A stretch of 63,874 bases of DNA, counting the filler, from Craspedostauros australis (taxonomy: Eukaryota), in the NCBI GenBank assembly GCA_030167865.1. It is 6 parts of 6 records of this genome, joined end to end, with 100 filler letters (N's around TTAATTAATTAA, not from the genome) between each part and the next. Parts side by side here need not be neighbours in the genome. Positions count along the whole stretch, not along the records: positions 1 to 20,514 come from JALAGF010006636.1; 5 more parts are not named here. One strand, 5' to 3'. The translations under genes and the position numbers were made by a program. Of the stretch, positions 1 through 60,842 are shown piece by piece. The notes beneath the pieces are model-generated. The model saw only the letters and a list, made by a program, of their open reading frames with translations, ran no database searches and was not told where the DNA came from. Position 1 is the stretch's first letter, and each line of letters starts with the position of its first letter.

Positions 1-1623
1 CCCACAAAGATCTGATCCGAGTTCCGACCATCTTCGTCTTCCGTTCCAGATGATTTGGCGTAGGGACCAACTCAGAGTTGTATCTACCACCTCGACTTTG
101 CTCACAAGGGTAAGCCCTGTCCTGAAGCCCATTCGCAGCCAAGGTGTCGCACTTGCGCATCGAATGCCTTCACAAATACCGAGGGAACAGAATGCTCCAT
201 GTGCACCCAGGTTCTCCGATACGAGGGGGACAAGACAGGGAAGAGAGGGTATCCAAGGCGGTGAAAGTGCTCCTTCAGCTTGATCGGAGAGGTCGGAGTG
301 GAACACAGAGACGGAGACAGAGACAGAGAAGAAGACGAAGACGATGACGAAGGGAAAGAGCTAACTAAGTGGTGCCACCCCACTATCACAACGCCGATCG
401 CGAGACTGTGTCAGATGAACCAAAGGTTTTCTTGATGACGTTGGTGTCCAAAGAAAGAGAGAGGGAGGGAGAGAGAGAGTGTGTGTGTCACGCCGCGAAC
501 TGAGCCAGGCAAGAGTCATGTTTGGCCTTGCGGAGAGCTCACACATGCGATGCTGGATGCCTTTGACGCAGGCCCAGTCAGCTCCTACGGAACTCAGAAC
601 GAAGTCTCTTTTGGTGAAGCAGACCCTTGCACCATGGACAATCGAGGGTGAACCATACATCCTGCCGTGCGCAAATCGCAGTGTGACTGACTGACCACTG
701 TCGCGGCAGTTTCTCACGGAACAGCACCCAATCCGCACTTTGTGATCGGCGGCTTTGGTCAACGTATTCAACTCTGATGGACCTCTCCCTTGGATCATGT
801 CCGCTCACGATCGATCCATCCCAAGTCCATAATGATTGCAAACACTTGCTTCCCAAGAGCGTGATGGTTTCGTATCATCGAACCAGCTTCATGTTTGAAG
901 CACCAATTACAAGCGAATAGAGCGATTGAGGACGCGCCGGTGTTTCCAATTAAACAGTCCCAACAAGCCTTGATTGCTGCTGTTGTTCTTCGTTCGGAAT
1001 AGTCCATTGTTCTCGATCCACTTTGGGCTCGTCTGCGATTCCATTCCATTCTGCTTCTGTCCCATCACCAATACAGGTAGTTACTCTCATTCCCCGTTTC
1101 TTTCTTCTCCTCACGATTTCGTCCAAAGATTTTGCGGATGAGAGCGTCTGCGTGTCTGATTTCTCTCCATCCGCAAAACAGAGACGGCTTCACGCCACCC
1201 ATGTGACCAACCATCGCACCCCCTCTCTGGGCTTGCATGAGTATTGCAGGCAAAGTCGCAGAGGCGCGAGTATCGGTAGTCGTACCCGCACCATGCTCGG
1301 CAATTTGCCAGAGTGTCTGTACTCTCCTCTGCCATACCAACAAACGCACTTGTCTGCCTCTCTGAAGGGCTTGTTGTCTTTCGGAACGGTTCTGCTTCTT
1401 GGCGTTTGACATGAAAAGCGATCCCTTCGTATCTTGTTACGGTGCTGGAAGAGTGAGCCCGCAGTACGTGACAATTATGCACGAAAAAATCCTAGTTGCG
1501 GCTTGGGGGAAGACGGTGTCCATCATCGTCACCCCTCTCTGCGCTCGTGCAAGCATTTGCAGAGACAAGACATCGGGGGCATTCATGAGCGTTTCATCTG
1601 CAGTCGCTCTGCACCAATACTTC

Positions 1624-1650
1624 AGAGAGAGAGAGAGAGAGAGAGAGAGA
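1624..1650. repeat. (AG)n microsatellite
   Basis: Uninterrupted AG dinucleotide run visible in the sequence. Confidence 0.9.
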
Positions 1651-1885
1651 TTCGTCTGTGGGTGCTCTAACGTATTCATGACATGCGTCGGATTTATCTG
1701 TGGATGTGACTTCCCTGCAAGTGCGTCCGCATCTCGGATGTCTCGCAACGAATGAGAGAGGATAGAGCACGCAAAGCAGCAAAACTGTGCAACATCTCCT
1801 GAAGGAATGCACCAAATTCGAGGCACTGTATCTCTGGAGGCTTGTCTGCAATTATGCGCTATCTTTGTAAGGCGATGCGACACAT

Positions 1886-2243
1886 TGTTAAAATAGCGCG
1901 CTGCGGAATCGAACCACGGAGCCAGTCCACGCCGTGCATGAACACAAGAAATTAACGCTTATAACCCATGTCGCGACACCCTCCCTAATTCTTGGATTCA
2001 TGCCCTTGAGCCCCCCTATCATGAGGACCCCCCCACACTCTATCTTTATACTGCCGCTGTAGGCAGTCGGCAAGTTTCGGGTGTTTCTGTGTGTTTTTGT
2101 CGCAGGGGTGGGTACCAGCCGACGGAATCGAACCTTAGGCCACGCTACCATGTTAAAATAGCGCGCTGCGGAATCGAACCACGGAGCCAGTCCACGCCGT
2201 GCATGAACACAAGAAATTAACGCTTATAACCCATGTCGCGACA
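1886..2243 (-). mobile_element. Miniature non-autonomous LTR retrotransposon (TRIM-like), 358 bp
   Basis: Two identical 93-bp direct repeats (1886-1978, 2151-2243) with TG...CA ends. 6-bp TSD ACACAT at 1880-1885 and 2244-2249. On the minus strand, PBS TGGTAGCGTGG lies directly after the 5' LTR (2150-2140) and purine tract AGGGAGGG directly before the 3' LTR (1986-1979). The 172-bp interior has no recognisable retroelement coding sequence. Confidence 0.92.
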
Positions 2244-4042
2244 ACACATGCCGCAGTCTGGATCTTGGAGACGCAGCCGCCTGTTTCTGTTTGGCTCTCG
2301 CTTGCTATCAAATCGAGCGCAATGGTCTCCAATCGTTCGTATCGGAGGATCTGCGACCGCAGGACACCTACCAGGATCAGCAGATCGGGTATGCCTTGAC
2401 CGCACAGTATGTCGTATCGTTCCTGCGCTGTGAGCGGAATGCAGCTGCTGTCGATCGCGTCTTCGCGGTTGCTCGGGTTCTCTCCGTCGTCAGGACGGAC
2501 GAAGATGGCCCGCCATCGTTGCTCTCGGTGAAGAAGCTTCTGTTTCTTGAGTTCCAAAGCACTAGCCGTCGGGTTGCCTTGGCTGTGGCGAGTCATCTCG
2601 TACTCATCAATTGCAGCGCTCCATTGTGCAACGGGCATCCAATCCAGTGTAAGGGCAGGGCCCTGGATCACTTCCTCAAGCCCAAGAGTTGTCGGCATCT
2701 CTCGCACTGTGACTGTCGAGAAGTGTACGAGTTGATCGATGGCGTCGTTGTCTTCTCCAGGACCGTGGACTGGCGTGTCGCATTCGTGGAGGACCATCTT
2801 TGGTTTATTCCCTTTGATGCTGCCACGTGAGATAACAGCCCCATCCCCGCTTGGTCCTGTCCACTGCAGCGCCGTCACGTCCTTCCTGACGAGTGAAGGT
2901 CCCAAGCCGGACTCGCTCTCGCCACAGCGCTCTCCATCCCTCTCCTGCTGTTCAGCATTGTTGCGACGTTGGTGAACTCCAACTCCAGGTTGGATATTGA
3001 CTTTGTGGAAACGGATGCTGTCAATAGGGCGCTGTTGGCTACCCTCACTGTGGCCGTCGTCGCTGCCGCATCCCTCCAACCCACCATAGCCGTCATCACA
3101 TTCGTAGCCGTCGTATTCGTCACCCCAACTGAACGAGCTCTCGAGATTGTCGGTTTCCGACGCGTCGTCTGCTGGTGGCCCCACACGACGCAGCAGCGGG
3201 GGCTCGGGTGGCAATTGGAAGTCTGCATCACATCTACGCGCGTCGCGACTTGCGCTGCATGCAGTCATGGTCTTGTCATGGTCCGCTGCGTCCGCAGCGA
3301 AAAAGTTCATGACGGATGTCGGTGATTTCCTCTGCGTTCGGGATGACGGGAACCTCGAGATGCATGGAGAAGGCGAAAGCCCCATCACGGTCGGCACGAT
3401 GAGGGATGTCACGGAATAGCAATGGGTGCTTTCGTCCAGACCGTTGCAAGAGTAGGCGTCTCTCGGATAACGCTGTTCATGCTTGGAAGTGATAGTGCGA
3501 GATCTTGTGTTACTGTGGTTGCTGCTACCCACGCTGATGACTGGAGTATCCTCCGTTCGAATCGTGTCGTCGTTCATGCCATCATGACTACCATTGTACG
3601 TGCTGTAGTCGTCGTCACTATTGCCGATGGCATCAAGAGCAGCTATCGTTTCGGTGTCCGTGATGCTGCTATGCGTGGTGTGCGCGGAGATGTGGGATTG
3701 GATAATGCTGCCGCCCCACTGAGGTTGCCTCGCTGCACGCGATGTATGTGATACGTGCGACAGCACCGATTTGCTGGAACTCTGCCGCAGCGTATCGAGC
3801 TTGCTTTGTGCGAGTTGGTACATGATCCACCAGCTGCGGACAGTGCTCGCAAAAGGTTCCTTTTGTTGGTTGTGTTGCTGCTGATGCTTGAGCTTGATGG
3901 TTGGGAATTGTGGGAAATTCGTCACGGCTCGAGTGGTTGCTATGTTGGCGTCGCAGGAGTATCGCATGAGTGCAGGTTGGTGCTGATGTGCAAGAACATG
4001 GTGTTGCTGTACCATACGATGGGCAAGTCTCGCTTCTTTCAT
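2153..4042 (-). CDS. VxF/CSRNP-N-like module protein, paralog 1; C-terminus altered by the TRIM insertion
   Basis: 629-aa ORF with a low-complexity N-terminal part. Module: LVHFSTVTVREMPTTLG...GPALTLDW...IDEYE...PLTAQERYDIL..QGI...RLET. The last ~30 codons come from the LTR. Confidence 0.8.
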   Translation of the reverse strand: MKEARLAHRMVQQHHVLAHQHQPALMRYSCDANIATTRAVTNFPQFPTIKLKHQQQHNQQKEPFASTVRSWWIMYQLAQSKLDTLRQSSSKSVLSHVSHTSRAARQPQWGGSIIQSHISAHTTHSSITDTETIAALDAIGNSDDDYSTYNGSHDGMNDDTIRTEDTPVISVGSSNHSNTRSRTITSKHEQRYPRDAYSCNGLDESTHCYSVTSLIVPTVMGLSPSPCISRFPSSRTQRKSPTSVMNFFAADAADHDKTMTACSASRDARRCDADFQLPPEPPLLRRVGPPADDASETDNLESSFSWGDEYDGYECDDGYGGLEGCGSDDGHSEGSQQRPIDSIRFHKVNIQPGVGVHQRRNNAEQQERDGERCGESESGLGPSLVRKDVTALQWTGPSGDGAVISRGSIKGNKPKMVLHECDTPVHGPGEDNDAIDQLVHFSTVTVREMPTTLGLEEVIQGPALTLDWMPVAQWSAAIDEYEMTRHSQGNPTASALELKKQKLLHREQRWRAIFVRPDDGENPSNREDAIDSSCIPLTAQERYDILCGQGIPDLLILVGVLRSQILRYERLETIALDLIASESQTETGGCVSKIQTAACVVATWVISVNFLCSCTAWTGSVVRFRSALF

Positions 4043-4789
4043 TCACGTCGCGACTCGAGTCAATCGCACAGTGTGGCTGTGGTAGGCAAGGTGGGTCTTG
4101 CATCATCATGATCACACAGGCACACGAATGGTTGCACGAGGAAGCAAAAGGTGCTGTTGCCCAATCCATTGCTGAGTGTCGGTCGCACACTCCCACTGGT
4201 ACAAACGGGAATTCGGGATTGGCCACGAGATGTGCCTGCCTTCTGATGGACTTGCGGCGCGATCATTCCGTGCCGCTCCATGATTCGTCTTTTGGCGTTG
4301 TCCACCGCTCCGCTCCACACTCCACTACCTACATTTCGCTGGAGTGTGTTTGCGTTGGTTCTGCACCCGCGCGTCATCACTTCGGTTGTATGCAGCCAGA
4401 CCAAATTCAATTTGTGAGGGCCCGAGTTGGCGAACCCTGCAATCGCCCTTCTTTCACGGATCCATAAAGAAGGCTCGTCTATGGAGAAATGGCGTTGGTC
4501 TTCGTGCGTGAAGTTTTGACGACTTGTTTGTTGGACGCTCTTTTCCTTCAATGGTCGCACAAGCCAACACTTCACAACACGAAGCACAAGTACATGTGAT
4601 GCGTTGTGTAAGTTGGAAGCAGAGCAACCACATCGTGATCAGGTGATCTCTATCCTTTCCCATTGCTCACAAACTATTTCATTGCATTGCATTGCATACA
4701 GGCATCGAAGCTATCGCGCACCCGATGAGTGATATGTTGGCTTTGAACCATGTTGTATCCTCGTACAATGCGTTCTATTTACTCACGTT

Positions 4790-7429
4790 CTAGCTAGCCC
4801 GTGAAGGCATGCCCCTGCTTCGATCACGTTTCGGCTTTGCCATGCGCTTTGGCACTCTCGCCGCCTTCTTCTTGCGGCGCGTTTCACCACCGGGTTCCGG
4901 CGGTTGTGCCGCTTCTCTGCCGCTGTCCACTTCGTACAGTTCGTCTTCGTCGTCGTACTCGTAGTCGTCTTCGTCGCTGCTGAAGCTCCTGTCATCAGAA
5001 TCGTAGCTGCGATCATCTCTGCGTCGACCTGGATTGCCGCTGGGTTGTGGCAACGCTCGGCGTCTGGCCCTAGATCGAGATCGAGCCCTGCTCTTGTCTC
5101 TGGGGCGTCGTTCCGCATTGGAAGCAAGCTGCTTCTCGGCAGCCAGCGGTCGTGTGCGGGCCGGCGATTTGTGTCGTGCGCCAGCTCGCACGCGGCTGCG
5201 GGATCGTCCACGGTGCTGCCGATCTTCTGGCTCGTCTCGAATTGGGTGCGCCGCAACCTCCTGGTTTTTGTTGGTGGTGTTGCGGGCACGCGATCGCGAT
5301 CTGCCACGAGCAGTTCGGACACGCGATTGGGAGCGTCCCCTGGATCGTTCTGGCTGCGGTTTTCCTCGTCCATGTGAGGAGGAGCCATCGTCGTTGCTTG
5401 CCATCGAGGCTGTGACAGGTGATAGGATGGTCGATGCGGGTGCGTGCATTTGGGGCTGCGGTTGCTGTGGCGGTGGCGGGTGTTCGTATGGATACCTCTC
5501 CTGCTGTTGCTGCTGTTCGTACATTGGGTAAGCGTTCGGCTGTTGCGGATAGTGCTGCTGTGGCTGCGGAGGATGATGGTATTCTGGACCATACGGTGGT
5601 TGCGCATATCCCTGCGGATGGTGGTATGGCAGCGGTTGCATTGGAAGCTGATGATCTTGCGCATAGGCCTGGTTGTACGGCGGTGGATGGCCATGCGGGT
5701 AGCCTTGGTTGTATGTCTGTGGTGGCGGCGGTGGCTGCGGCGGATAGTGCTGTGCGTAAGCTGGATCGTAGGCCGGTTGTTGGTAGTTGGGGCCGTATCC
5801 CTGTGGCTGTCGATAGTCCGGTGGGTATCCCTGACCATACGGTTGTGGCTGGTGATAGTCTGGTGCGGGTTGCGGTGGATATGGCGGATTGGGCTGCTGT
5901 TGCTGCTGCATGGGAGGTGGATACGGCACTTGGATCTGCGCCACAGGTTTGTTGAAGTCCTCGTCATGTCCCTTCGAACGAAGCTCATGCCGGTCATCAT
6001 CCAGCTTCTTCTCATCGTGGTCTCGACTACGGCGCATATCATGATTGCTCATGTTGCCGCTGCTGATCGTGTCGTGATCGTCGTCTGCAGGCTTGTGCTT
6101 GTGGCGGTCATCATTGGCCTTGACACTGGTCTTGACCTTGACATTGGCAGGTTCTTTCGCAATCACCTTGGCGACGTCGTCCTTGACATCCGCCTTGACA
6201 TCATCCACGACATTGTCCTGCAGGTTCATCTTTTGTGGAAACTTGTCGACCATCTCATCGATCTTGTCCTCCTTGGTCGCACGCCGTCGTCGCATCAACG
6301 CTTGACGCGACAGCTTGGGCCGCTGCAACACCGTCGGTGAAAAGAGACTCTTGAATTGCGACACGTTATCGAGATGATCCAACAACCTGGTTTCCAATCG
6401 CTGTTGCAACACGACATGCGAATCCATGGTGGCTTGACGAATGGCGTCCCACGACACGCCGTTATCGCGCAGCAGCTTCTGCCGTTGTGTCGCCGACAAT
6501 GGCATACATTCGTCGTCATCGTCGTCATCATCATCGCGCTGCGTCTTGCGCCCATCGACACGCATTTGCAGATGCAAATAGAAATCTTCGTCTTCGCCCG
6601 CGTCGGTCTCGATATGCGGCACGGCCAAACGTTGGATACGATCCATCTCATCGATGGAAACGACGCAGCAATCGCTGGGAACCCATGCCATCGTGATGGG
6701 CGGTCCGTACATGACGGGGATATCGCCGACGGTCGTGGGGAAGAAGATGAGGTCGACATTGGAGAATCGGACGTTGCGTTTGGCACGTGGTTTCTTTTTC
6801 ATCATGCCGAAATCCCGATCATCTTCGTCATCGAGATGCGTGGGGCGGCTTTGACGCGGGCGGACGTTGGTTGTGGGGCTCGTGTGGATGCTGGCGTTAT
6901 CGGCATTCATGGGACGGTTCGGACTGAGTTTCCGCGAAGGCATAGTGAGTTTCTGTGGATGAGAAGGAACGAACGGTCTGCGTTGCGGAGGCAGACTGGA
7001 ATCATCCTGATGGAAATCGCCGTTGCGAGCGCCGTTGATGCGATTGCCAGTGTCATTGCTGTTGGTCGATCTCCTCATGCTGTTGACACCACGATCGTGG
7101 AGACTCGCGCTCTTTTTATCGTACTTGTCGTATTCGTATGGAGAAGAAGCGTTGCGATCCTGGTTTGCATTGATGGCCGAATTTCGGCGTCGACCAGCAT
7201 CGTACTGTCGGCCCAGCTGCGATGGGTGTTGTTGTGATGGCTGCTGGTGCTGCTGCTGCTGCTGCTGCTGTGGACGAGGTTGTTGCGATGGGTGAAGCCG
7301 TCGAGGCTGATGAGGCTGCCTTTGATGTGGATGTAGTTGATGTGGTTGATGTGGCTGCCTGTCATAAGAATCCGGTGGATTGCCATGATCATAGGCTTCC
7401 TCCATCGACCTTCGTCTGTGCATGCTCAT
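4790..7429 (-). CDS. VxF/CSRNP-N-like module protein, paralog 2, with Q/P/Y-rich and RS-rich regions
   Basis: 879-aa ORF. Central module KRNVRFSNVDLIFFPTTVGDIP..GPPITMAW...IDEMD...PLSATQRQKLLRDNGVS...QQRLETRLLD, followed by YPPQP-type repeats and RGRSRSR-type repeats. Confidence 0.82.
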   Translation of the reverse strand: MSMHRRRSMEEAYDHGNPPDSYDRQPHQPHQLHPHQRQPHQPRRLHPSQQPRPQQQQQQQHQQPSQQHPSQLGRQYDAGRRRNSAINANQDRNASSPYEYDKYDKKSASLHDRGVNSMRRSTNSNDTGNRINGARNGDFHQDDSSLPPQRRPFVPSHPQKLTMPSRKLSPNRPMNADNASIHTSPTTNVRPRQSRPTHLDDEDDRDFGMMKKKPRAKRNVRFSNVDLIFFPTTVGDIPVMYGPPITMAWVPSDCCVVSIDEMDRIQRLAVPHIETDAGEDEDFYLHLQMRVDGRKTQRDDDDDDDDECMPLSATQRQKLLRDNGVSWDAIRQATMDSHVVLQQRLETRLLDHLDNVSQFKSLFSPTVLQRPKLSRQALMRRRRATKEDKIDEMVDKFPQKMNLQDNVVDDVKADVKDDVAKVIAKEPANVKVKTSVKANDDRHKHKPADDDHDTISSGNMSNHDMRRSRDHDEKKLDDDRHELRSKGHDEDFNKPVAQIQVPYPPPMQQQQQPNPPYPPQPAPDYHQPQPYGQGYPPDYRQPQGYGPNYQQPAYDPAYAQHYPPQPPPPPQTYNQGYPHGHPPPYNQAYAQDHQLPMQPLPYHHPQGYAQPPYGPEYHHPPQPQQHYPQQPNAYPMYEQQQQQERYPYEHPPPPQQPQPQMHAPASTILSPVTASMASNDDGSSSHGRGKPQPERSRGRSQSRVRTARGRSRSRARNTTNKNQEVAAHPIRDEPEDRQHRGRSRSRVRAGARHKSPARTRPLAAEKQLASNAERRPRDKSRARSRSRARRRALPQPSGNPGRRRDDRSYDSDDRSFSSDEDDYEYDDEDELYEVDSGREAAQPPEPGGETRRKKKAARVPKRMAKPKRDRSRGMPSRAS

Positions 7430-18324: not shown

Positions 18325-18605
18325 CAGGAACACCCAACATTTTGTCCGATTTTCACTTTTCTAGCTCGTGACCTAATTTACCGGGACTTAATACACAGCG
18401 TTGAGACAGAACAGTGAATCGCCTGAAATCCTGAAAATCATAGATAGGGTTACGCTATTGCTCTTCAATTGTCGTTGGTCCAGGCACGGAGAGACCGGAC
18501 AAAACCGGAGAAACTAGGTCGGACCGGACAGACCGGACAAAATGACCGGACAAACCGGACAGACCGGACAAAACGACCGGACAGACCGGACAAACCGGAC
18601 AAAAC
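18325..18605. mobile_element. DNA-transposon terminus, copy 1, with subterminal ACCGGACA array
   Basis: Starts CAGGAACACCCAACATTTTGTCCG, is near-identical to 18751 onward, then becomes an ACCGGACA(A/G) tandem array that runs into a gap. Confidence 0.65.
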
Positions 18606-18750
18606 NNNNNNNNNNNNNNNNNNNNNNNNNNNNNNNNNNNNNNNNNNNNNNNNNNCAGTAGCACCAGTCCCAATGCTGGAGGCATGGACCAAGACGACAG
18701 CCAGATGTTCCCCGTGGTGGACTAGTCGCGCTTCTCTCACTCCTTCTCCA

Positions 18751-19458
18751 CAGGAACACCCAACATTTTGTCCGATTTTCACTTTTCTAGCTCGTGACCT
18801 AATTTACCGGGACTTAATAAACTGCATTGAGACAGAAAAGTGAATCGCCTGAAATCCTGAAAATCGTAGATAGGGTTACGCTATTTCTCTTCAATTGTCG
18901 TTGGTCCAGGCACGGAAGACCGGACAAAAGCGGAGAAACTAGGCCAGACCGGACAAAATGACCGGACAAACCGGACAAAACGACCGGACAGACCGGACAA
19001 ACCGGACAAAATGACCGGACATAACGGACAAAACAAACGAATCAACCGGACAGACCGGACAAAACTCAAGAATTTATCGAACTATTTAACGGACGGTTAA
19101 TCGAATATAACGGACATTTGGATCGTGAAGAAACAGACAAAACTACTTCGCACGGAGTGACGCAAGCCAACCCAAACCACAAGAACAGATGAGTGAAACA
19201 AGACAACAAGCCAGCTTCGCACTGAAGTATGGCATCATGCCAATGCAAATGTCCGGTTCTATTGCATTATGTGTGTTGTTCTTATTACTGTTTTGTGGTA
19301 TGACATCAAATCTCAAAGAGTTCTGCTCCATCATCCCGATGGTATTGCACAATGACACAAATGGCTTCAAACAAATGCTTCTGCTTTTCTGTGCCATGCA
19401 AAAAGTGATCTTCAGCACGCTGAAGAACTCCAGTCTCTCATTGAAGGTCTCATGATGC
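18751..19458 (-). mobile_element. DNA-transposon terminus, copy 2, with ACCGGACA array and the 3' end of the transposase
   Basis: Same terminus as 18325, with an array at ~18919-19062. 19227-19458 duplicates the transposase 3' end found at 19593-19824, with a few substitutions. Confidence 0.7.
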
Positions 19459-19592
19459 NNNNNNNNNNNNNNNNNNNNNNNNNNNNNNNNNNNNNNNNNN
19501 NNNNNNNNGATTGGTATGCTTAGTTTGGTTGTAATCGAAGAAAAAGTGCCACTCTACTTTACAAACGGTTGGTCGACTCACTCACATGGCTC

Positions 19593-20500
19593 GTATGGCA
19601 TCATGCCAATGCAAATGTCCAGTTCTATTGCATTATGTGTGTTGTTCTTATTACTGTTTTGTGGTATGACATCAAATCTCAAAGAGTTCTGCTCCATCAT
19701 CCTGATGGTATTGCACAATGACACAAATGGCTTCAAACACATGCTTCTGCTTTTCTGTGCCATGCAAAAAGTGATCTNCAGCACGCTGAAGAACTCCAGT
19801 CTCTCATTGAAGGTCTCATGATGCAACCGTGCTCTGCTCTTGAAGTTTTCAAGTTCTGGCCCATCGAACTCATTTGGTGTTCACATCATATTCTTTTTCA
19901 TACGACTCGTCCTGTGCCCACGATCAGCAATGATGACTTTCCCACCTGTGATCTGATGCAACAATCCTTCACAACAAATAGTCAAGTCATGTTTACCTCA
20001 TTGGTGGAGCAGTCATGTTTACCTCATTGGTGGAGCCCGTGGATCCAAACACACTTTAAGTGGTACACAGTGATTGCGATCTCGTATTTGAGAGCACCGT
20101 GGTTGAACTTCTTCGAGCCCCATGCCAGATCTGTGTTGAGTGTTGAGTGTTTCTGCTCCCATACATGAAAATATGTGCTGTCAACTGTGGCAATGAAAGC
20201 TGTTCCCTCTTGATCATTCAATGAGCTTGGCCAAACAGTCATGTCAGCTTTCATTGCTGCAATCATTTTGATCCAGCACCATAGATGATTCCATATTGCA
20301 TACTATCAAAATATCCCATATGCTGCATCAAGGATGTTGGCATTCTTTGGATTGGTCCATAGAAAGCATAGAACTGCAAGGAACATTCAGAAGCCTCTTC
20401 CAGTGTTGTCATATTGTGATATCTTTGCTACGGAAGTAGTCGTTGTGTGCATGTCATCCCAAATACCTGAAATAGTTTCCGGCCAAGATGCATAGTGAGA
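19593..20500 (-). pseudogene. Degenerate DDE transposase (PIF/Harbinger-ISL2EU, DDE_Tnp_4-like)
   Basis: Fragments FIATVDSTYFHVWE, SKKFNHGALKYEIAI..CVWIHG, KVIIADRGH and RARLHHETFNERLEFF follow the D-D-E motif order of this family. In-frame stops and a 26-bp tandem duplication (19985-20036) break the frame. Confidence 0.8.
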
Positions 20501-20558
20501 TCGGAACATGGTATNNNNNNNNNNNNNNNNNNNNNNNNNNNNNNNNNNNNNNNNNNNN

Positions 20559-20570
20559 TTAATTAATTAA
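20559..20570. other. Artificial contig-joining linker
   Basis: TTAATTAATTAA (stops in all six frames) flanked by N runs. Confidence 0.97.
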
Positions 20571-20668
20571 NNNNNNNNNNNNNNNNNNNNNNNNNNNNNN
20601 NNNNNNNNNNNNNNCCAAACGCTCCTCCAAAACCGACTTTTCTCAATGGATTCCTGAAAAAGATCCAA

Positions 20669-25438: not shown

Positions 25439-25504
25439 TTGAAGTTCAACTAAGAACCGANNNNNNNNNNNNNNNNNNNNNNNNNNNNNNNNNNNNNNNN
25501 NNNN

Positions 25505-25516
25505 TTAATTAATTAA
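25505..25516. other. Artificial contig-joining linker
   Basis: TTAATTAATTAA flanked by N runs. Confidence 0.97.
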
Positions 25517-25947
25517 NNNNNNNNNNNNNNNNNNNNNNNNNNNNNNNNNNNNNNNNNNNNACGGCGGCATGAGAATGGATTTCACGAAGTGCTCCTACCC
25601 AGAGCGTATCACCATGGAACAGTTGTAAACATGAATCCGATCGAAATGGCAGCAAACACATCTACCATACGTACAAACAGTATTCTTCGCGCGGCCTGCA
25701 TACTACGAGTTGTGTGGACGGAGGAGCTTGGCAGGTTGCAATGTATTATATTACATGTGCTTCTGTGAAGACGCTATAACATGTATCATATGATGGAGTA
25801 GATTGTTCATTCTTCAATCCTCGGGCTTCGATGGCATCCCTCATCCCGTGGTCAAGGATTGTACCACGGTTTGGTGATAGACCAACATCTGCCTTCATTG
25901 TTGCTACAGGAGCTGGATGCACGAGTATCCGTACTCATTGAGTGGTC

Positions 25948-32720: not shown

Positions 32721-32953
32721 GTGAACTGGAAATGGAACTATAGGCGGATCGCACCCTGAGACGATTCCCCTGCCACCACAACATTGCCAGCAAACAGACC
32801 TGCCAAATGGACACAGCCCTCTCTCCCAACACGATCATAATACTCACACATCCGTTCCCACTGTGTGCAGACATGGAGAATAAACAAGGCAGAATCAAAG
32901 CGCCCCCCCNNNNNNNNNNNNNNNNNNNNNNNNNNNNNNNNNNNNNNNNNNNN

Positions 32954-32965
32954 TTAATTAATTAA
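32954..32965. other. Artificial contig-joining linker
   Basis: TTAATTAATTAA flanked by N runs. Confidence 0.97.
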
Positions 32966-33009
32966 NNNNNNNNNNNNNNNNNNNNNNNNNNNNNNNNNNN
33001 NNNNNNNNN

Positions 33010-36000
33010 AGCGGACCAACCAGTGGCCCAACGTCCGGCCCAACTAGCGGACCAACGTCGGGACCAACCAGCGGACCAACCAGCGGACCAACCTCAGGAC
33101 CAACCTCAGGACCAACCTCAGGACCAACCTCAGGACCAACGAGCGGACCAACATCCGGACCAACATCCGGACCAACATCCGGACCAACCAGTGGACCAAC
33201 TAGCGGACCAACAACGGGCCCCACTTCTGGACCAACAAGCGGCCCAACAAGCGGACCTACTTCCGGCCCAACCTCTGGACCAACTAGCGGACCAACCTCT
33301 GGACCAACATCTGGACCAACAAGCGGCCCAACTAGCGGACCTACTTCTGGACCAACTTCGGGACCAACCAGTGGCCCAACCAGCGGCCCAACATCTGGAC
33401 CAACCAGCGGACCAACTTCGGGACCAACCAGCGGCCCAACCAGTGGCCCAACCAGTGGACCAACCAGCGGACCAACATCCGGCCCAACATCTGGACCAAC
33501 ATCAGGACCAACCAGCGGACCAACCTCCGGACCTACTTCTGGACCAACCAGCGGACCAACTCCACAGCCAACATCCCAACCAACAGCCAGTGCTGCACCA
33601 ACCAACTGCGTTGATCCAGATGGCGCCAAGCTCGTCGAATCCACTGATCCTTCCTACACTGCCGACCCCAAGCCAATCATCCTCACATTCGAGAGCGACG
33701 ATGCAACACTCGTTGAGTTCGACTTCGTTCAGAACATCATCAACGGAGTCATTCCTCATGTCTTCATCAAGTACCGCAAGTCTGAGACTGGTATGAAGGA
33801 ATGCGCTGAGTTTACAAATGTCGGAGAGAACACTCCAATCTCACTTTCTGCCGAGTGTGTGGACATGTCCACGAATGTGGTGATCTACATCTACACTGGT
33901 GATGACTTTGCCAGTGAGAACTGCGAGGCATGCAGCCTTCCAAGTGATGGCGGCGAAGGCGGCTCAGGCAATCCAGACAGCTTTGCTGCGTACTACTTCG
34001 ATGTTCCATGCAACACCGAGTGTATCGAACCAACTGCAGCCCCAACTTCGGCGCCAACCAGCGGACCAACCTCGGGACCAACCAGTGGGCCAACCAGCGG
34101 ACCCACCTCTGGCCCAACGTCTGGACCAACTTCCGGGCCAACAAGCGGACCAACCTCTGGACCAACCTCCGGACCAACCAGTGGACCAACTAGCGGCCCA
34201 ACATCTGGACCAACTAGCGGACCAACTTCGGGACCTACATCTGGACCAACATCCGGCCCAACATCTGGACCTACTTCAGGACCAACCTCTGGACCAACCA
34301 GTGGACCAACCTCCGGCCCGACATCTGGCCCAACCAGCGGACCAACATCTGGACCAACTAGCGGCCCAACTTCGGGACCAACTTCTGGACCAACCAGCGG
34401 ACCAACAAGCGGACCAACAAGCGGCCCAACATCTGGACCAACATCTGGACCAACAAGCGGACCTACCAGCGGACCAACTAGCGGCCCCACCTCTGGACCA
34501 ACTAGCGGCCCAACTTCGAGACCAACCAGCGGACCAACCAGCGGCCCCACCAGCGGACCAACATCCGGCCCAACTTCGGGACCAACATCAGGACCTACCA
34601 GTGGACCAACTTCCGGACCTACTTCTGGACCAACCAGCGGACCAACTCCACACCCAACATCCCAGCCAACAGCCAGTGCTGCACCAACCAACTGCGTTGA
34701 TCCAGATGGCGCCAAGCTCGTCGAATCCACTGATCCTTCCTACACTGCCGACCCCAAGCCAATCATCCTCACATTCGAGAGCGACGATGCAACACTTGTC
34801 GAATTCGACTTCGTTCAGAACATCATCAACGGAGTCATTCCTCATGTCTTCATCAAGTACCACAAGTCTGAGACTGGTATCAAGGAATGCGCTGAGTTTG
34901 CAAATGTCGGAGAGAACACTCCAATCTCGCTTTCTGCCGAGTGTGTGGACATGTCCACGAATGTGGTGATCTACATCTACACTGGNNNNNNNNNNNNCAG
35001 TGAGAACTGCGAGGCATGCAGCCTTCCAAGTGATGACGGCGAAGGTGGCTCAGGCAATCCAGACAGCTTTGCTGCGTACTACTTTGATGTTCCATGCAAC
35101 ACCGAGTGTATCGAACCAACTGCAGCCCCAACTTCGGCGCCGACCTCTGGACCAACCAGCGGACCCACATCTGGACCAACCAGCGGACCAACCTCCGGAC
35201 CAACCTCCGGACCAACTAGCGGACCTACTTCGGGTCCAACATCAGGACCAACATCCCGACCTACTTCTGGACCAACTTCGGGACCAACCAGTGGCCCAAC
35301 CAGCGGCCCCACCAGCGGACCAACATCCGGCCCAACATCTGGACCAACATCAGGACCAACATCAGGACCAACATCTGGACCTACTAGCGGACCAACAAGC
35401 GGNNNNNNNNNNNNNNNNNNNNNNNNNNNNNNNNNNNNNNNNNNNNNNNNNNNNNNNNNNNNNNNNNNNNNNNNNNNNNNNNNNNNNNNNNNNNNNNNNN
35501 NNNNNNNNNNNNNNNNNNNNNNNNNNNNNNNNNNNNNNNNNNNNNNNNNNNNNNNNNNNNNNNNNNNNNNNNNNNNNNNNNNNNNNNNNNNNNTAGCGGC
35601 CCAACTTCCGGACCTACTTCGGGACCAACTAGCGGCCCAACTTCGGGACCTACTTCGGGACCAACCAGCGGACCAACATCTGGACCAACCTCTGGACCAA
35701 CATCTGGACCAACCTCTGGACCAACTAGCGGCCCAACTTCGGGACCAACCAGCGGACCAACCAGTGGACCAACTTCCGGCCCAACTTCGGGACCAACATC
35801 CGGACCGACCTCCGGCCCAACTAGCGGCCCAACTTCGGGACCAACAAGCGGACCAACAAGCGGACCAACTAGCGCCCCGACCTCTGGGCCTACTGCCGGC
35901 CCAACCAGTGGACCAACCAGCGGACCAACCTCTGGACCTACTTCTGGACCAACCTCTGGACCAACTTCGGGACCAACCAGTGGGCCAACTTCGGGACCAA

Positions 36001-38047: not shown

Positions 38048-38091
38048 NNNNNNNNNNNNNNNNNNNNNNNNNNNNNNNNNNNNNNNNNNNN

Positions 38092-38103
38092 TTAATTAAT
38101 TAA
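38092..38103. other. Artificial contig-joining linker
   Basis: TTAATTAATTAA flanked by N runs. Confidence 0.97.
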
Positions 38104-38147
38104 NNNNNNNNNNNNNNNNNNNNNNNNNNNNNNNNNNNNNNNNNNNN

Positions 38148-56143: not shown

Positions 56144-59100
56144 TTACTTCGGATCTCCGGAGCTAAAGTTGATCACCTTGTTCGTGCCTCGGGGCATGTC
56201 GTCCCTCAGCTCCTTCGACCAGTCCTCGCCGATGGCCTGCATGAAGCTCGTCAAGAAGTAGTCGGCACCCAGTCTCTGCTGGTCGCACTGGAAAAGATTC
56301 ACCAGGATGTTGTCACGTCCATCCCAAACAGCCACCACTGTGGCCTTTTCACAACGGGCCACCACCACAACACCATCACCGACATCATCGTAAACTCTCA
56401 TGGATTCCACGTTGAAGTCCGTGTCGTCCCCTTCGAGCACGGTTGAGAGGACGGAGGCGATGTTGGGACTGTTGTCGTGGTGGCTGCTGTCGCTTCGGCC
56501 GAGCTGGAACACCGACTGGCGGCCAAGGGCGACCTGGTCCTTCAATTGCTGCTTGCCGGCGCTCAGATCGTAGTCGCTTTGTGAGAACATCGTGGGGTTG
56601 AATTCATGATCTTCAAGGTATGTCAATGTTCCACCTTGCAGCACGCTTGGCTTGACCATGAAGGTGTCACCGTACTTGGCGGCGATGGTGTCCTCCACAC
56701 GTCGGATGCGAGGGAAGGTGTCGTTCATGTCCACGGTGAGGATGGAAAACTCGAATGCAGGAGCATCCATCTTGGCGCGCTTGGGTTGGACGATGATTTC
56801 GGTCCTGGTCAGAGGGTCGATGTCAAGCTTCAAGCGGATCTGTTTGAGAGTGTTGCGACGCCATTCATCCGTCGTGGAGTCTGGAAGGATGGAGACGTAG
56901 AGAGGAACGACGGTGTTCTGGAAGATGTTGCGTCGGAATGTCCAGAAGCTCGTGAAGATGCGTGCCATGGCGTACGGTGCCTCCGCATCCAGGACGACAG
57001 CTCCGATGGGTTGGTTGTGCTCGCGGATGGCGGATTTGATCTCATCTTCGATCGATTGGCGGCATTCATGCAAGTCAGCAAGGTTGCTGTTGTTGGCGTC
57101 GCCGTCTCCGAAGATGAGGGATTCCATCTCAGGACAGACATGGACCGGGACGATCGTCAACGATCCACTGCTGTTGTCGCTGTTGCTCTTCTCCAATGCG
57201 GAGACAGAAAGACACCTGCTGGATTGGATGCCACAGAATACAATCACCATGGAGCTACGCGCAACATCCATCGCATCCGTGATGGCACCCAGCGATGTCG
57301 CAAGGAAGTCATCGTCAGTCATCAGGCTTTCAATGGTGGCTGCAGCTGTTGGAGTAGTGTCGGTGGCAGTGACAGATGGAGCAGCCGCAGTTGCATCCTC
57401 CTCGGACTTGTCACACTTGCGAGTGTGAGTAGTGAGATCTGGGCCAATGAGCTTCGTGTCTTCTTCCCAGGAGTTGTTGCCATACATTCCAGACACGATG
57501 ACGCGGTACGATGAGACGGAGCCCTTTGCGACACCGTTGCCGGCTCCGAGAGCCTTCACCAACGCCGTTCGTGTGGCGTCCATCTTCTCAAAGCGCCCCC
57601 ACAGATGGATGTCCAATCCAACGTACGATCGTCCCTTCCACCAGCGGGCGATCACGTATCCCTCCGCCATCATGATCACGACGTCGCTGTCATCATCATC
57701 GTTGTCGTCTATGTTGTTATCATCGGAGATGATGGATGTGAAACCAAGACCCTCCAGGGCTGTCATCAGCGCAGATTCGATGGTGTCCAACGGAATGGTG
57801 CAGTGCTCCACCTCGATCACCATCAGCATGCCTTCGCTCTTGCCCTTTCGGATACCCTCGGTCTTCTTCTGGTCTTCGATGGCCTCAGCCAGAGCATCGC
57901 AGGATCCGTCTGTGGTTGGATCATTGATCTTGTAGTCACGCCAGAGGTAGTACTGGTGGGGATAGTCGTCGATCTCTGGCAACAGGAGGTTGTCGACGCC
58001 ATGATCCGTCATCTTGTCATGATGGTAGAAATCGATGTGGTTGCTGCCCATGATCATGGACTGGTCGCAGATCATGGGGTTATTGTAGTAATGGACGTCG
58101 ACGGAGTAATCGAAGGTGGCGGAGATCTTTTCGAAGTGCGGTTCGTTCTTCACCATGATACCACCTGGTTTGACGAGCAGTGCCATGGCGTTGAGGATAT
58201 CGAGATGTTCGGTGACGGTGAGGCTGGCTCCCGTTTCGGAGACGTCCACCATGACGAAGTCGAATGAGTTCATGTACTCTCTGGGGAGGAGGAGGAGAGA
58301 CTTGGTGGCATCACCGAACCACCACTCCACGCGATCATCGTGAAAGTGCGGATCTGTGTGGAACCATTCGAATGCGTTGCGCACGACGACCTGATCGAGC
58401 TCCAGTCCGATGACGAGCTCGAGGTTTGGGTACTTGAGCACCTCCTGGAGGATCATCGAATCACCGCCGCCGATGAAGGCGACGCGCTTGAATTCTGGCA
58501 GGTACCGTGCCGCGTAGTTGACGGCGTACTCGTGGTAGTGCGGTCTGTAGTTGTCGCAGATCTGGAGGATGTCATCCAATTCCATGCAAGCATTGATATT
58601 GCCTTCGTCGGTGACCTGCTTCCTGAATCGGATGTCTTGGTACTCGCTCTCAATGTCTTTCTTCGGACCGAACTTGCTGTAGTTCAAGAATTTGCGCACG
58701 TTGCATGTTGCCCTTCGGTCCGGGACCTCCTCCTCTTCGGATTCGAGGGTGTGGTAGAGCTGGTTGAGGTAGCACCCGTCTGTGACTTCATTGACACAGT
58801 CCAACAAATTATAATTCACCGCGTTGACATCATCGCTCGTCCTGCCTTGTTTGGTCGACCACAGCATGTTGGCGAGAATGAGGATGGAAGCGTCAATGTA
58901 ACTCATGATGATGTCGTGCTCATGCCGAGGAATGGTTGTGGATTGTGCAGAAGTTCCTTCGGGAATCGGCACCTGTGTATCAACAGGCAAGCCTCCATAC
59001 TTCCATCGAGCCAGGCTGCTGAGGAAGATCTCCATGTAGTACTGTCCATCAATATACTGCGGTTTTTCATCCCACTTGATTTTGAACCGCCGATCGTCGG

Positions 59101-60366
59101 ATGCGGTGTCGGCATCGGCGTGTTCCGTGCTTTGGCCACGCTTGATAGGAGCGTTTCGTTTCGAGATGGTCGCGGCCATGGTGTCATCGTAGAGGGTTTC
59201 GTACACGAAGTTCCATTGCTGTGGATATTGCGAAATGAAACCATGATCTCGTAGCAGATCTGCAGCGTTGCGAAGTGTTGGGGGCAGAGTGGCCCGTCGT
59301 GGCATTCATTCGAATGTTGAGAAGGAAATTGAAAGAAAATCAGGCGAAGGAGAAGCTGCTGTGTAAGCTTCACATGGCAGGAATGGAGTACCAATAGAGC
59401 ATCGTTGAGCGTTGAGCACTGGGCATTGCGGCACTGTGACATTATTGGTTCGTAGCAACCACATTGTCGGAGCGCTGTTGAACGATGCATTTCCTCACGC
59501 AGCGACTGTCATCCATCACACTCACGTGTCATTCCGTAGTCCTCTTCTCTTTCGTGCAACGGAGAATCGATATACGAGCGAACAAGCTGCTGGCCAGGAT
59601 CGATGGCCGCAGTCGAGACCAGCACAAAGGCATCGTTGTCATTATCGGGCTTGATCTGAACGTTGACTTTGGCGGGGTCGCTCTCATGGTTGTAGAGGTC
59701 GGCAATGGGCATGAGATCCTCGCCAATTCCCCGCGTCAGCACGATCATGGCGGCCAGTTCGGCAGCCGGCGTTCTGTCACCGCCGCAACCCTTCTCCCAA
59801 TCATTCTCCAGCCAATCCGTGGGATAGTACGGCGGAAATCGCAGGTACCGCGTGGTGCCCTCGAGCATCGCATGGAATGCCCGCTTGCCCGCGTCGCTCC
59901 ATGTGCTCGGATTGCGAATCGCCTGCTCCGTGACAGGCGAGTCTTCGGCTTGCAGGTATCGCATGAACGGCGCGTACTTCGAATCATCGCCCAGCTTCAT
60001 CTCCTCGATCAGCGCGAACGTCGTGCGGCAATTCAGTTCGCTTTTGGGAAAGTCATCCCTGTCGTTCTCCGCTATCGATAGATCCCACGGGATCGTGGCC
60101 AGCAGCTCGCCGGCTTCGATGCGTTCGGCAGCAAACACACCCACGCCGACCTCATCGGTGGTGTGAAATTCGGTGGCATCCGCCCGCCGCACGATCTGCT
60201 TGTGATTGAAGGATCCCTTGGGATGCTGCTCCACCCATTCAATCACGCTGTTGATGCTCTTGTTCTCAGATGGCGAAGTCGTTGCCGTCACGATCGCAGT
60301 GAGTGCCGCGAATGCGACGCAGACGGACTGCAGCATCGTCGCTGAGCTCCGTCTGCGGGATGTCAT
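56144..60366 (-). CDS. Signal peptide + SET domain + aminopropyltransferase (spermidine synthase-like) + AdoMetDC-like fusion protein, two exons
   Basis: Exon 1 (60366-59526): signal peptide, GVGVFAAERIEAGELLATIP, LMPIADLYNH, IDPGQQLVRSY. A GTGAGT...CAG intron joins in phase to exon 2 (59259-56144): YRPHYHE, RVAFIGGGDS, LELD, FGDA, FDFVMVD, LVKPGGIMV, then two AdoMetDC-like segments. Confidence 0.88.
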
Positions 60367-60500: not shown

Positions 60501-60584
60501 TGTTGTGTTGTGTTGTGTTGTGTTGTGTTGTGTTGTGTTGTGTTGTGTTGTGTTGTGTTGTGTTGTGTTGTGTTGTGTTGTGTT
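60501..60584. repeat. (TGTTG)n microsatellite at the contig end
   Basis: Perfect pentanucleotide run up to the N gap. Confidence 0.93.
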
Positions 60585-60628
60585 NNNNNNNNNNNNNNNN
60601 NNNNNNNNNNNNNNNNNNNNNNNNNNNN

Positions 60629-60640
60629 TTAATTAATTAA
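60629..60640. other. Artificial contig-joining linker
   Basis: TTAATTAATTAA flanked by N runs. Confidence 0.97.
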
Positions 60641-60842
60641 NNNNNNNNNNNNNNNNNNNNNNNNNNNNNNNNNNNNNNNNNNNNACCACACAACCACACG
60701 ACCACAAATCAACACGGAAGTCAACACGATGTCCCAACCGCACCTTCCTGAATTCCGCCAACTCCATCTCATAAAACCAAATCACCATCCACCTCACTCC
60801 AACTTCCTTCGAATCAACCCAACTTGACACAACAATACAACC

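Follow-up and report, generated by a model that had tools for sequence, protein, structure and literature searches.

What kind of sequence separates an open reading frame (ORF) of Craspedostauros australis from its native stop codon, and what did it do to the gene? In the window, by which we mean the whole 63.9-kb stretch of DNA that was analysed, a unit of 358 bp (1886-2243) is framed by two identical repeats and lies at the 3' end of this ORF. We consider it very probably a complete LTR retrotransposon, non-autonomous and in the size class of TRIM/SMART elements, placed on the minus strand, with the following features:

1852-1884, minus strand: original end of the host ORF (CVASPYKDSA plus stop), now displaced, placed by frame arithmetic and translation and cut off from the ORF by the element
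1880-1885, no strand: left copy of the TSD, ACACAT, identical to 2244-2249, the match ending at 6 bp
1886-1978, minus strand: LTR of 93 nt, the 3' LTR in sense orientation, 100% identical to 2151-2243, TGT...ACA
1890-1915, minus strand: module resembling the 3' end of a tRNA gene, in the 3' LTR; GGTTCGATTCC, 11 nt (GCA + GCGCGCT + A), TTTT
1979-1993, minus strand: polypurine tract (PPT) AAGAATTAGGGAGGG, abutting the 3' LTR, with 8 uninterrupted purines at 1979-1986
1979-2150, minus strand: non-coding internal domain (core) of 172 nt, unique in the window, with 0 Pfam families in the traversing frame
2124-2134, minus strand: second exact GGTTCGATTCC, separated from the PBS by 3 nt on its downstream side; CCCA comes after a further 11 nt
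2138-2150, minus strand: PBS TGGTAGCGTGGCC, directly after the 5' LTR, the sole exact copy in the window
2151-2243, minus strand: LTR of 93 nt, the 5' LTR in sense orientation, with the same tRNA-like module at 2155-2180
2244-2249, no strand: right copy of the TSD, ACACAT, identical to 1880-1885
2250-4042, minus strand: host ORF upstream of the insertion, 629 codons in total, the frame entering the 5' LTR and reaching its stop at 2153-2155

The two repeats, recovered by a repeat search and by blastn, start 265 nt apart; outside tandem arrays, no other exact direct repeat in the window is as long. Both begin with TGT and end with ACA, and the match between the ACACAT hexamers that bound the element ends at 6 bp on either side. 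Immediately before the right repeat, the plus strand at 2138-2150 reads GGCCACGCTACCA; on the minus strand, the PBS thus starts with TGG and follows the LTR-terminal CA with 0-nt spacing. The tract AGGGAGGG abuts the 3' LTR, likewise with 0-nt spacing, on the minus strand, which is the sense strand of the element (read on the plus strand, 1979-1993 gives the complement of AAGAATTAGGGAGGG, the uninterrupted purines lying at the LTR junction). By our own arithmetic, the chance of each signal at its fixed position is about 1/4096 for the TSD, 1/256 for TG..CA, 1/64 for TGG and 1/256 for the purine run, and chance is not a plausible source of this architecture. Simple tandem duplication also fails as an explanation, since the core ends in ...CTACCA and not in ACACAT, and the duplication, matched at 6 of 6 positions, lies outside the 265-nt unit. 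The longest frame through the element, and the only long one, spans 111 codons from stop to stop and contains no Pfam family; no RT or integrase domain was found among the 14 ORFs of at least 250 aa in the window. None of the predicted folds is unusually stable: z is -1.0 for the complete element, +1.45 for the LTR, -0.95 for the U5-PBS hairpin and -0.60 for 81 nt spanning the LTR/PBS junction.

TRIMs are defined as elements below 1000 bp whose two LTRs enclose a core bordered by a PBS and a PPT (PMC10886601). The element combines TG...CA terminal repeats, a PPT beside the 3' LTR, a TSD within 4-6 bp and a length of less than 1000 bp devoid of gag/pol. Its PBS abuts the 5' LTR, and the search for the cognate tRNA has so far covered the window, where it returned 0 tRNAs. 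The identical LTRs, PBS, PPT, TSD and absence of Pfam families bear out the initial annotation of a structurally complete, non-coding TRIM-like element.

If the element follows the standard LTR-retrotransposon cycle, an RNA that begins within the 5' LTR and terminates within the 3' LTR would be packaged by the Gag/Pol of an autonomous element; a TATAA at LTR positions 16-20 may mark an ordinary Pol II start about 30 nt farther on. A tRNA ending in ...CCACGCUACCA would anneal to the PBS and prime minus-strand DNA, the AGGGAGGG tract would prime the plus strand, and the integrase of the helper would join the TG...CA ends to the target, duplicating 5-6 bp (ACACAT). While the structural signature and the insertion site are read directly from the DNA, mobilization in trans, a helper and the identity of the primer tRNA are what we infer.

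The consequence for the host gene can be followed codon by codon. The element reads in the same direction as a lineage-specific ORF that looks coding and lies 11 codons ahead of its stop; the codon score of this ORF is +0.17 in frame, as against -0.31 and -0.42 when other frames are read. Without the element, the frame ends at the TAA at 1852-1854; by frame arithmetic and translation, the insertion replaces the last 8 residues by 29 LTR-encoded residues. The ORF product has no Pfam family and no relatives in a word-indexed search, and a full HMMER search found three weak ones (best E 7.6e-6). Every match to the threonine-synthase ORF of the window whose source name carries an organism is a diatom protein, with 48-57% identity, and the host is, as judged by this ORF, diatom-like. 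A protein atlas returned bacterial FabI clusters only and was uninformative for taxonomy.

Dispersal is the defining behaviour of a transposon family. Neither blastn nor an exact search found a further match to the LTR, the core or the PBS in the 63.9-kb window. Exact-word scans of larger collections were also blank: the word across the LTR/PBS junction and that from the tRNA-like LTR end had 0 matches in viral contigs and prokaryote genome contigs, and the LTR-start word had 0 matches in metagenome contigs and viral contigs. These blanks are weak evidence, because the scans require an exact match and the collections hold little diatom nuclear DNA. The element is known here from a single visible copy, making its membership of a multi-copy TRIM family putative.

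How old is the insertion? Zero differences over 93 nt bound the LTR divergence to at most 0.032 per site (95%), which, at the P. tricornutum rate of 4.77e-10 taken for this purpose, corresponds to an age of about 3.4e7 generations or less. The initial annotation had called the insertion very young and deduced an active helper from it. The lack of LTR divergence is confirmed, but with such a bound both the youth and the active helper were overstated. A similar correction applies to the TSD, whose length had been taken to indicate an unusual helper: the 6-bp match is real, but the argument is weak, as at a single locus a 5-bp TSD with a chance sixth match (probability 1/4) would look the same. 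TSDs are usually 5 bp in plants and fungi and 4 bp in animals, and the normal range for LTR retrotransposons is given as 4-6 bp (PMC3281118). Printed examples from diatom copia elements are a 4-bp TSD (TTCC) and a duplicated 5-bp motif, ACAAG (PMC2806351).

Which tRNA could prime the element? The PBS implies a primer with the 3' end ...GGCCACGCU-A-CCA, i.e. with U72 and A73, and it is from these two positions that we infer an initiator-tRNA primer. Eukaryotic initiator tRNA-Met is marked by A1:U72, A54 and A60; one that matches this PBS would presumably end in ...GGCCACGCUA. ARAGORN at default settings found no tRNA gene in the window. A metagenome scan, using an initiator-type anticodon-arm motif together with CCACGCTA, yielded 34 loci ending in CCACGCTA, in 24 of which ARAGORN called a tRNA-Met. 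None of the 34 has the eukaryote-initiator T loop with both A54 and A60, and A54 occurs in one (L018); nine of the 34 encode CCA, which indicates a set of bacterial or organellar type. L018 shares 11 nt of its 3' end with the PBS complement, but was rejected as a primer source, its 1:72 pair being mismatched and CCA being encoded in the adjacent tRNA, a bacterial trait. Also rejected was a reading of the sequence past the PBS as read-through of the primer tRNA, as its reverse complement misfits tRNA numbering, with T55 and C56 out of register. A literature search with the PBS string returned nothing relevant.

The LTRs themselves may hold a second link to tRNA. On the sense strand, each LTR ends in a tRNA-gene-like module, made up of an exact GGTTCGATTCC (B-box/T-loop), an acceptor strand, a discriminator A and TTTT. 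The initial annotation had recorded neither this module nor the minus-strand orientation and the position at the 3' end of an ORF. A tRNA-gene-like LTR end is not described for TRIM-like elements in diatoms, and the evidence for one here is suggestive, not decisive. It leads to a possible, if doubtful, refinement of the class assignment: a Helenus-type (TRIMp3) element whose LTR is largely a decayed tRNA gene supplying an internal Pol III promoter (B box) and a T4 terminator, and whose CCA-tailed, tRNA-like LTR RNA might prime at the element's own PBS. The geometry speaks for it, as the exact GGTTCGATTCC, a T stem with four of five base pairs (CGTGG/CCGCA) and the 11 nt (GCA, GCGCGCT, A) up to TTTT are arranged like the 3' end of a tRNA gene, with a spacing equal to positions 63-73 of established tRNA numbering. 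The same 12-mer recurs just after the PBS; by our arithmetic, about 0.03 exact 11-mers would be expected by chance in the entire window. Beyond this shared 12-mer, the LTR and the core-side motif have no similarity. At a 90% threshold, ARAGORN calls a pseudo-tRNA in both LTRs, accounting for two of the five relaxed calls in the window, as against 2 such calls in 2000 dinucleotide-shuffled versions of the LTR region. The sole Rfam match in the element at E≤1 is to the tRNA clan (16.7 bits). With CCA appended, GCGCGCUA would pair with TGGTAGCGTG over 10 consecutive positions (9 Watson-Crick, 1 G-U), and the chance that all six informative LTR-PBS positions pair is about 0.004, although this is post-hoc arithmetic.

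Against this refinement stand several observations. Default ARAGORN finds no tRNA, the Rfam tRNA model is absent even at E≤10 when 411 nt are searched, and the left LTR alone has no tRNA-clan match. The relaxed ARAGORN models take their 5' acceptor strand from sequence beyond the LTR, and this strand is not the same in the two copies. Box B (GGTTC) is matched exactly in the LTR, but a convincing box A is missing; TCGCGACATGG at LTR positions 3-13 comes closest and fits only part of the TRGCY...YGG pattern published for Helenus (PMC10886601). Unless leaky, a T4 terminator placed in the 5' LTR would halt Pol III ahead of the PBS, and the hairpin predicted for U5 and PBS does not stand out in stability from shuffled sequences (z -0.95). 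Kojima did not find complementarity between LTR and PBS in Helenus (PMC10886601), and the motifs are known here from one copy only. The furthest-reaching version is unlikely: stramenopiles would here yield their first Helenus-type (TRIMp3) element, more reduced than any known so far, in which the 93-nt LTR would be barely more than a decayed tRNA gene (B box, U72-A73 acceptor end, T4) and a CCA-tailed end would be complementary to the element's own PBS over 10 nt, unlike in described Helenus elements. Such complementarity would mean that the element could supply its own RT primer in addition to a Pol III promoter.

Could the locus have a more trivial origin? With a single copy visible, the element might be a one-off derivative of an autonomous LTR retrotransposon, internally deleted during or after insertion, and not a member of a propagating TRIM family. 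Some TRIMs do arise by internal deletion of autonomous elements (PMC10886601), and autonomous copia elements with LTRs as short as those of FRetro64 (76 and 90 bp) are described (PMC3281118). But the 172-nt core holds no detectable coding remnant, the deletion would have had to spare PBS and PPT exactly, and the T-loop-like motif common to core and LTR looks like part of a designed small element and not like a remnant of gag/pol, so that we regard this origin as improbable. Still less credible is an artefact or a duplication unrelated to transposition, i.e. a mis-traversed assembly loop that conceals a solo LTR or another copy number, or a local tandem duplication. The window is admittedly a gapped draft with 30 N runs, and an exact 93-nt repeat 265 nt apart is a classic short-read assembly-graph loop. 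However, the nearest N run lies more than 16 kb from the element, and TSD, TG..CA, PBS and PPT sit exactly at the repeat boundaries, which neither mis-assembly nor slippage produces; even if the loop were mis-threaded, a genuine insertion of an LTR with its TSD would remain at this site. A complete, non-autonomous element of the TRIM/SMART class is the reading that we retain.

TRIMs are easily missed, tend to lie near genes and can reshape them. The rewritten C terminus of a diatom-specific protein provides a concrete case of a miniature retroelement altering a diatom gene. As the only diatom TRIM/LARD calls in print are automatic, a curated intact copy can serve as a query with which to trace its family, the helper and insertions that are polymorphic. 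Should the tRNA-like LTR be borne out, it would extend TRIMs with small-RNA promoters (Cassandra, Helenus, Ajax) to stramenopiles, and one would have to ask whether an element of this sort can encode the primer it uses; otherwise, what we describe is an ordinary small LTR element.

Finally, we would place the element among known systems. It resembles TRIMs in size, non-coding state, LTR/PBS/PPT layout and short TSD, and TRIMs are likewise presumed to be mobilized in trans (PMC10886601). It differs in that its 93-nt LTRs are at the short end of the range and its apparent TSD is 6 bp instead of the usual 5 or 4 bp. TRIMs/LARDs have been reported for Ectocarpus, and 27 putative TRIM/LARD copies for P. 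tricornutum (Rastogi et al. 2018, PMC5859163). The initial annotation knew of no described diatom family like this one; that statement has to be narrowed, since putative TRIM/LARD elements were already annotated in Phaeodactylum, although those in print are automatic "putative TRIM/LARD" annotations only (PMC5859163), which we compared with the element by description only. A close likeness in size is the SMART FRetro129, which has 292 bp (358 bp here), identical 85-bp repeats (93 nt here), TGT...ACA ends and a 5-bp TSD (PMC3281118). SMARTs lie in or near genes, as does the element here (PMC3281118). In contrast to it, they are confined to grasses, have 5-bp TSDs and have a copia helper deduced from core similarity, whereas no helper is visible in our case.

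Cassandra and the retrozymes share with the element a non-autonomous state and, if the tRNA-like module is real, LTRs that carry a small-RNA module, namely 5S rRNA or a hammerhead ribozyme. Neither 5S rRNA (Cassandra/Ajax) nor a hammerhead (retrozyme) has an Rfam match at E≤10 in 1860-2270. Helenus (TRIMp3) is more similar, with tRNA-like sequence in the LTR, a conserved GGTTC box B and a size range of 311-1263 bp that covers 358 bp; in Selaginella, Helenus-1_SMo combines an LTR of 120 bp with a core of 85 bp (PMC10886601). The listing given there covers fungi, animals and Selaginella, with no stramenopiles. In our element, no more than the 3' third of a tRNA gene can be clearly recognized, and box A is doubtful. 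The tRNA-like 3' end of its LTR would pair with the PBS, while no LTR-PBS complementarity was found in Helenus (PMC10886601). The copia-like CoDi and the gypsy-type LTR retrotransposons of diatoms are, by their descriptions, set apart from the 358-bp element as coding elements of 4-10 kb, but they form the likely pool of helpers, and recent, haplotype-specific LTR-retrotransposon insertions are documented in P. tricornutum (PMC2806351, PMC8147415).

The element at 1886-2243 of the window (358 bp, sense strand minus) is, judging from its structure, very likely a TRIM-like LTR retroelement. Its terminal repeats form the longest exact direct repeat in the window, tandem arrays aside, and a blastn search with the element across the window returned no match beyond these two copies at 1886-1978 and 2151-2243.

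Features of the element and its host ORF
1886-1978 and 2151-2243, minus-sense: 3' and 5' LTR copies from the direct-repeat search, 93 nt each, 100% identical, 265 nt apart
1880-1885 and 2244-2249, strand not applicable: target-site duplication (TSD) ACACAT flanking the LTR pair, not extendable on either side
2138-2150, minus: primer-binding site (PBS) TGGTAGCGTGGCC, reverse complement of the + strand, abutting the 5' LTR; implied primer end ...GGCCACGCU-A-CCA
1979-1993, minus: polypurine tract (PPT) AAGAATTAGGGAGGG, reverse complement of the + strand, at the far end of the 172-nt core and abutting the TGT of the 3' LTR
2153-4042, minus: host ORF, 629 codons with a Met start, within which the element is inserted

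Both LTR copies start with TGT and finish with ACA, and on the minus strand, from 2243 down to 2151, the 5' LTR ends in ...TTTTAACA with TGGTAGCGTGGCC directly next to it. The repeats, TG...CA ends, ACACAT flanks and abutting PBS and PPT described at 1880-2249 by the initial annotation were thus all found. Taken as independent, the signals at these fixed positions have computed chances of 1/4096 (TSD), 1/256 (TG..CA), 1/64 (TGG) and 1/256 (eight purines), and chance does not explain their coincidence at the boundaries of the repeats. Nor does slippage or simple tandem duplication account for the flanking hexamer: the core terminus reads ...CTACCA, not ACACAT, so the hexamer lies outside any 265-nt tandem unit. 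The nearest N run is at position 18606. The reported absence of gag and pol also holds, as the longest frame across the element, the sole long one (111 codons, stop to stop), contains no Pfam family; nor did Pfam detect reverse transcriptase, integrase or Gag domains in the 14 window ORFs of at least 250 aa.

The host ORF scores as coding in frame (+0.17; the remaining frames score -0.31 and -0.42) with a codon score trained on four Pfam-supported window genes. It has no Pfam family and no relative in a word-indexed search; full HMMER gave three weak relatives (best E 7.6e-6) over residues 437-574 of the 597 submitted. When the element and one TSD copy are removed, the frame reads CVASPYKDSA-stop and closes at a TAA at 1852-1854, which places the insertion 11 codons short of the native stop, in the orientation of the gene. 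With the insertion, the last 8 residues give way to 29 that the 5' LTR encodes. A threonine-synthase ORF in the window, with 1141 relatives at E <=1e-20, marks the host as diatom-like: among the 120 listed, every organism-named source is a diatom (Seminavis, Fistulifera, Bacillariaceae, Cyclotella, Chaetoceros, Leptocylindrus, Thalassiosira). Identities among these 120 reach only 43-57% overall (48-57% for organism-named matches), indicating that the species itself is absent from that collection.

How recent is the insertion? With no difference over 93 nt, the 95% upper bound on LTR divergence is 3.0/93 = 0.032 per site, or at most ~3.4e7 generations at the Phaeodactylum tricornutum rate of 4.77e-10 per site per generation given in the available text of PMC6604790, the only diatom rate verified. 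The insertion is not old, and the intact TSD, PBS and PPT agree without adding precision; the LTR identity sets no tighter limit, and the initial claims of a very young insertion and an active helper go further than it does. The proposal that a 6-bp TSD points to an unusual helper or integrase is likewise unproven: with a real duplication of 5 bp, a sixth base would match by chance at 1/4, so that a single site is too little to argue from about the helper, and 4-6 bp is given as the normal range for LTR retrotransposons in the available text of PMC3281118. For diatom copia-like elements, that of PMC2806351 gives TTCC as a 4-bp TSD (Blackbeard) and ACAAG as a 5-bp motif present in duplicate.

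The PBS displays U72 and A73 of the primer, from which we infer A1. An A1:U72 pair marks eukaryotic initiator tRNAs, and an initiator tRNA is an unproven candidate primer, read from the PBS. A metagenome scan for tRNA genes ending in CCACGCTA and bearing an anticodon arm of the initiator type, a pattern whose choice biases the loci recovered, gave 34 loci, 24 of them called tRNA-Met by ARAGORN. A54 together with A60 occurred in 0/34, A54 in 1/34 (locus L018), and CCA was encoded in 9/34; these loci are of bacterial or organellar type, do not yield the diatom primer and weigh neither for nor against an initiator primer. At another locus, L025, positions 1-257 adjoining the tRNA-Met match GOLLD RNA (198.9 bits, E 6e-56), unrelated to the element.

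Exact scans gave 0 matches for the LTR/PBS junction word in viral and prokaryote genome contigs, for the LTR-start word in metagenome and viral contigs, and for the LTR tRNA-like-end word in viral and genome contigs; these blanks weigh little, since the scans were exact-word and the collections are poor in diatom nuclear DNA.

Several further features lie elsewhere in the window. Between 33012 and 37214, a tandem array of 12-nt period with units like CGGACCAACCTC forms three long stretches (~46, 49 and 135 copies, 69-76% matches) with N runs between them. A 361-codon open frame lies in this region (33884-34966, +). Translated, the array would give a repeat of four residues, for instance Gly-Pro-Thr-Ser, possibly of a repetitive cell-wall-type protein. 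Beside 50-N gaps at 18325-19800, amid ACCGGACAA-type short tandem repeats, lie exact direct repeats (42-81 nt, spacing 366-426 nt) that resemble duplicates flanking the gaps or an array of larger period rather than LTR pairs. A perfect (TGTTG) x 16.8 microsatellite (60501-60584) directly precedes a pair of 44-N runs, and the identical pattern of 44 N, 12 bases and 44 N recurs at 20515-20614, 25461-25560, 32910-33009, 38048-38147 and 60585-60684, an oddly regular structure of gaps or masking. A 1053-codon ORF (56147-59305, minus) carries a spermine/spermidine-synthase domain at residues 256-390 (Pfam E 1.5e-13) within a much larger protein; expansion of polyamine-synthase-like genes is a known trait of diatoms.

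The final third of the LTR probably goes back to a tRNA gene or to a SINE of tRNA origin, with a putative promoter role. In sense orientation, both LTRs carry GGTTCGATTCC, the tRNA T-loop and Pol III box B consensus, within a T stem (CGTGG/CCGCA) pairing at 4/5 positions. Exactly 11 nt follow (GCA, GCGCGCT, A) before TTTT; in a tRNA, position 62 and the discriminator are equally far apart, which puts the start of the T run at the site expected for a tRNA-gene terminator. ARAGORN at a 90% threshold called a pseudo-tRNA in both LTRs (two of five relaxed calls in 63.9 kb), compared with 2/2000 in dinucleotide shuffles of the LTR region, and the sole Rfam match in 1-6000 at E <=1 came from the tRNA clan (16.7 bits). 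At default settings ARAGORN found no tRNA gene in the window, and the Rfam tRNA model had no match in 1860-2270 even at E <=10. The relaxed models place the 5' acceptor strand outside the LTR, where the two copies are unlike, and box A is partly recognisable at most. The core holds a third copy of this same LTR 12-mer (CGGAATCGAACC as read on +), 3 nt past the PBS, beyond which blastn and the repeat search within the window found no LTR-core similarity. Past the PBS, core 2124-2150 (minus) has a T-loop motif, 11 nt (GTC, GGCTGGT, A) and then CCCA; in sense orientation this resembles the 3' terminus of a mature tRNA bearing its CCA tail, but for a single additional C. Primer-tRNA read-through is rejected as its origin, as this would give the opposite strand.

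The tRNA-like module places the element beside Helenus, TRIMs with tRNA-like LTRs, described in the available text of Kojima 2024 (PMC10886601) as 311-1263 bp long with TSDs of 4 or 5 bp, in fungi, six animal phyla and Selaginella, with no stramenopile named there. Among the papers listed on Helenus and tRNA-LTR TRIMs from 2024 onwards, none is about diatoms, judged by title and abstract. The same text reports that the tRNA-like sequence and PBS of Helenus are not complementary, whereas here ...GCGCGCUA plus CCA would form 10 consecutive pairs with TGGTAGCGTG, nine of them Watson-Crick and one G-U; the chance that all six informative positions pair, computed post hoc, is ~0.004. This match could reflect common descent of LTR module and primer from one tRNA type, because both end CGCUA, or, most boldly, a self-encoded primer. 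It could also, by analogy, form a retrovirus-like U5-PBS stem. Such stems occur in retroviruses; the hairpin predicted here is not more stable than shuffles (z -0.95), and we therefore count the pairing as a lead only. A full-length Pol III template would, in addition, need a leaky T4 run in the 5' LTR.

Among other known systems, Cassandra/Ajax (5S rRNA in the LTR) and retrozymes (hammerhead in the LTR) are excluded, as neither gave an Rfam match in 1860-2270 at E <=10. The initial annotation knew of no described diatom family, which calls for qualification. None of the papers retrieved on TRIMs and diatoms describes a curated diatom TRIM, judged by title and abstract, but 27 copies, 7,291 bp in all, are in print as "putative TRIM/LARD" for P. 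tricornutum in the available text of Rastogi et al. 2018 (PMC5859163). TRIMs/LARDs are also reported from Ectocarpus in a review. Nearest in size and layout among published elements is SMART/FRetro129 of grasses, at 292 bp, with genic insertions and with identical 85-bp repeats bounded by TGT...ACA, according to the available text of PMC3281118. The TRIM kind is already known and its presence in stramenopiles already flagged; the present copy is new and well preserved.
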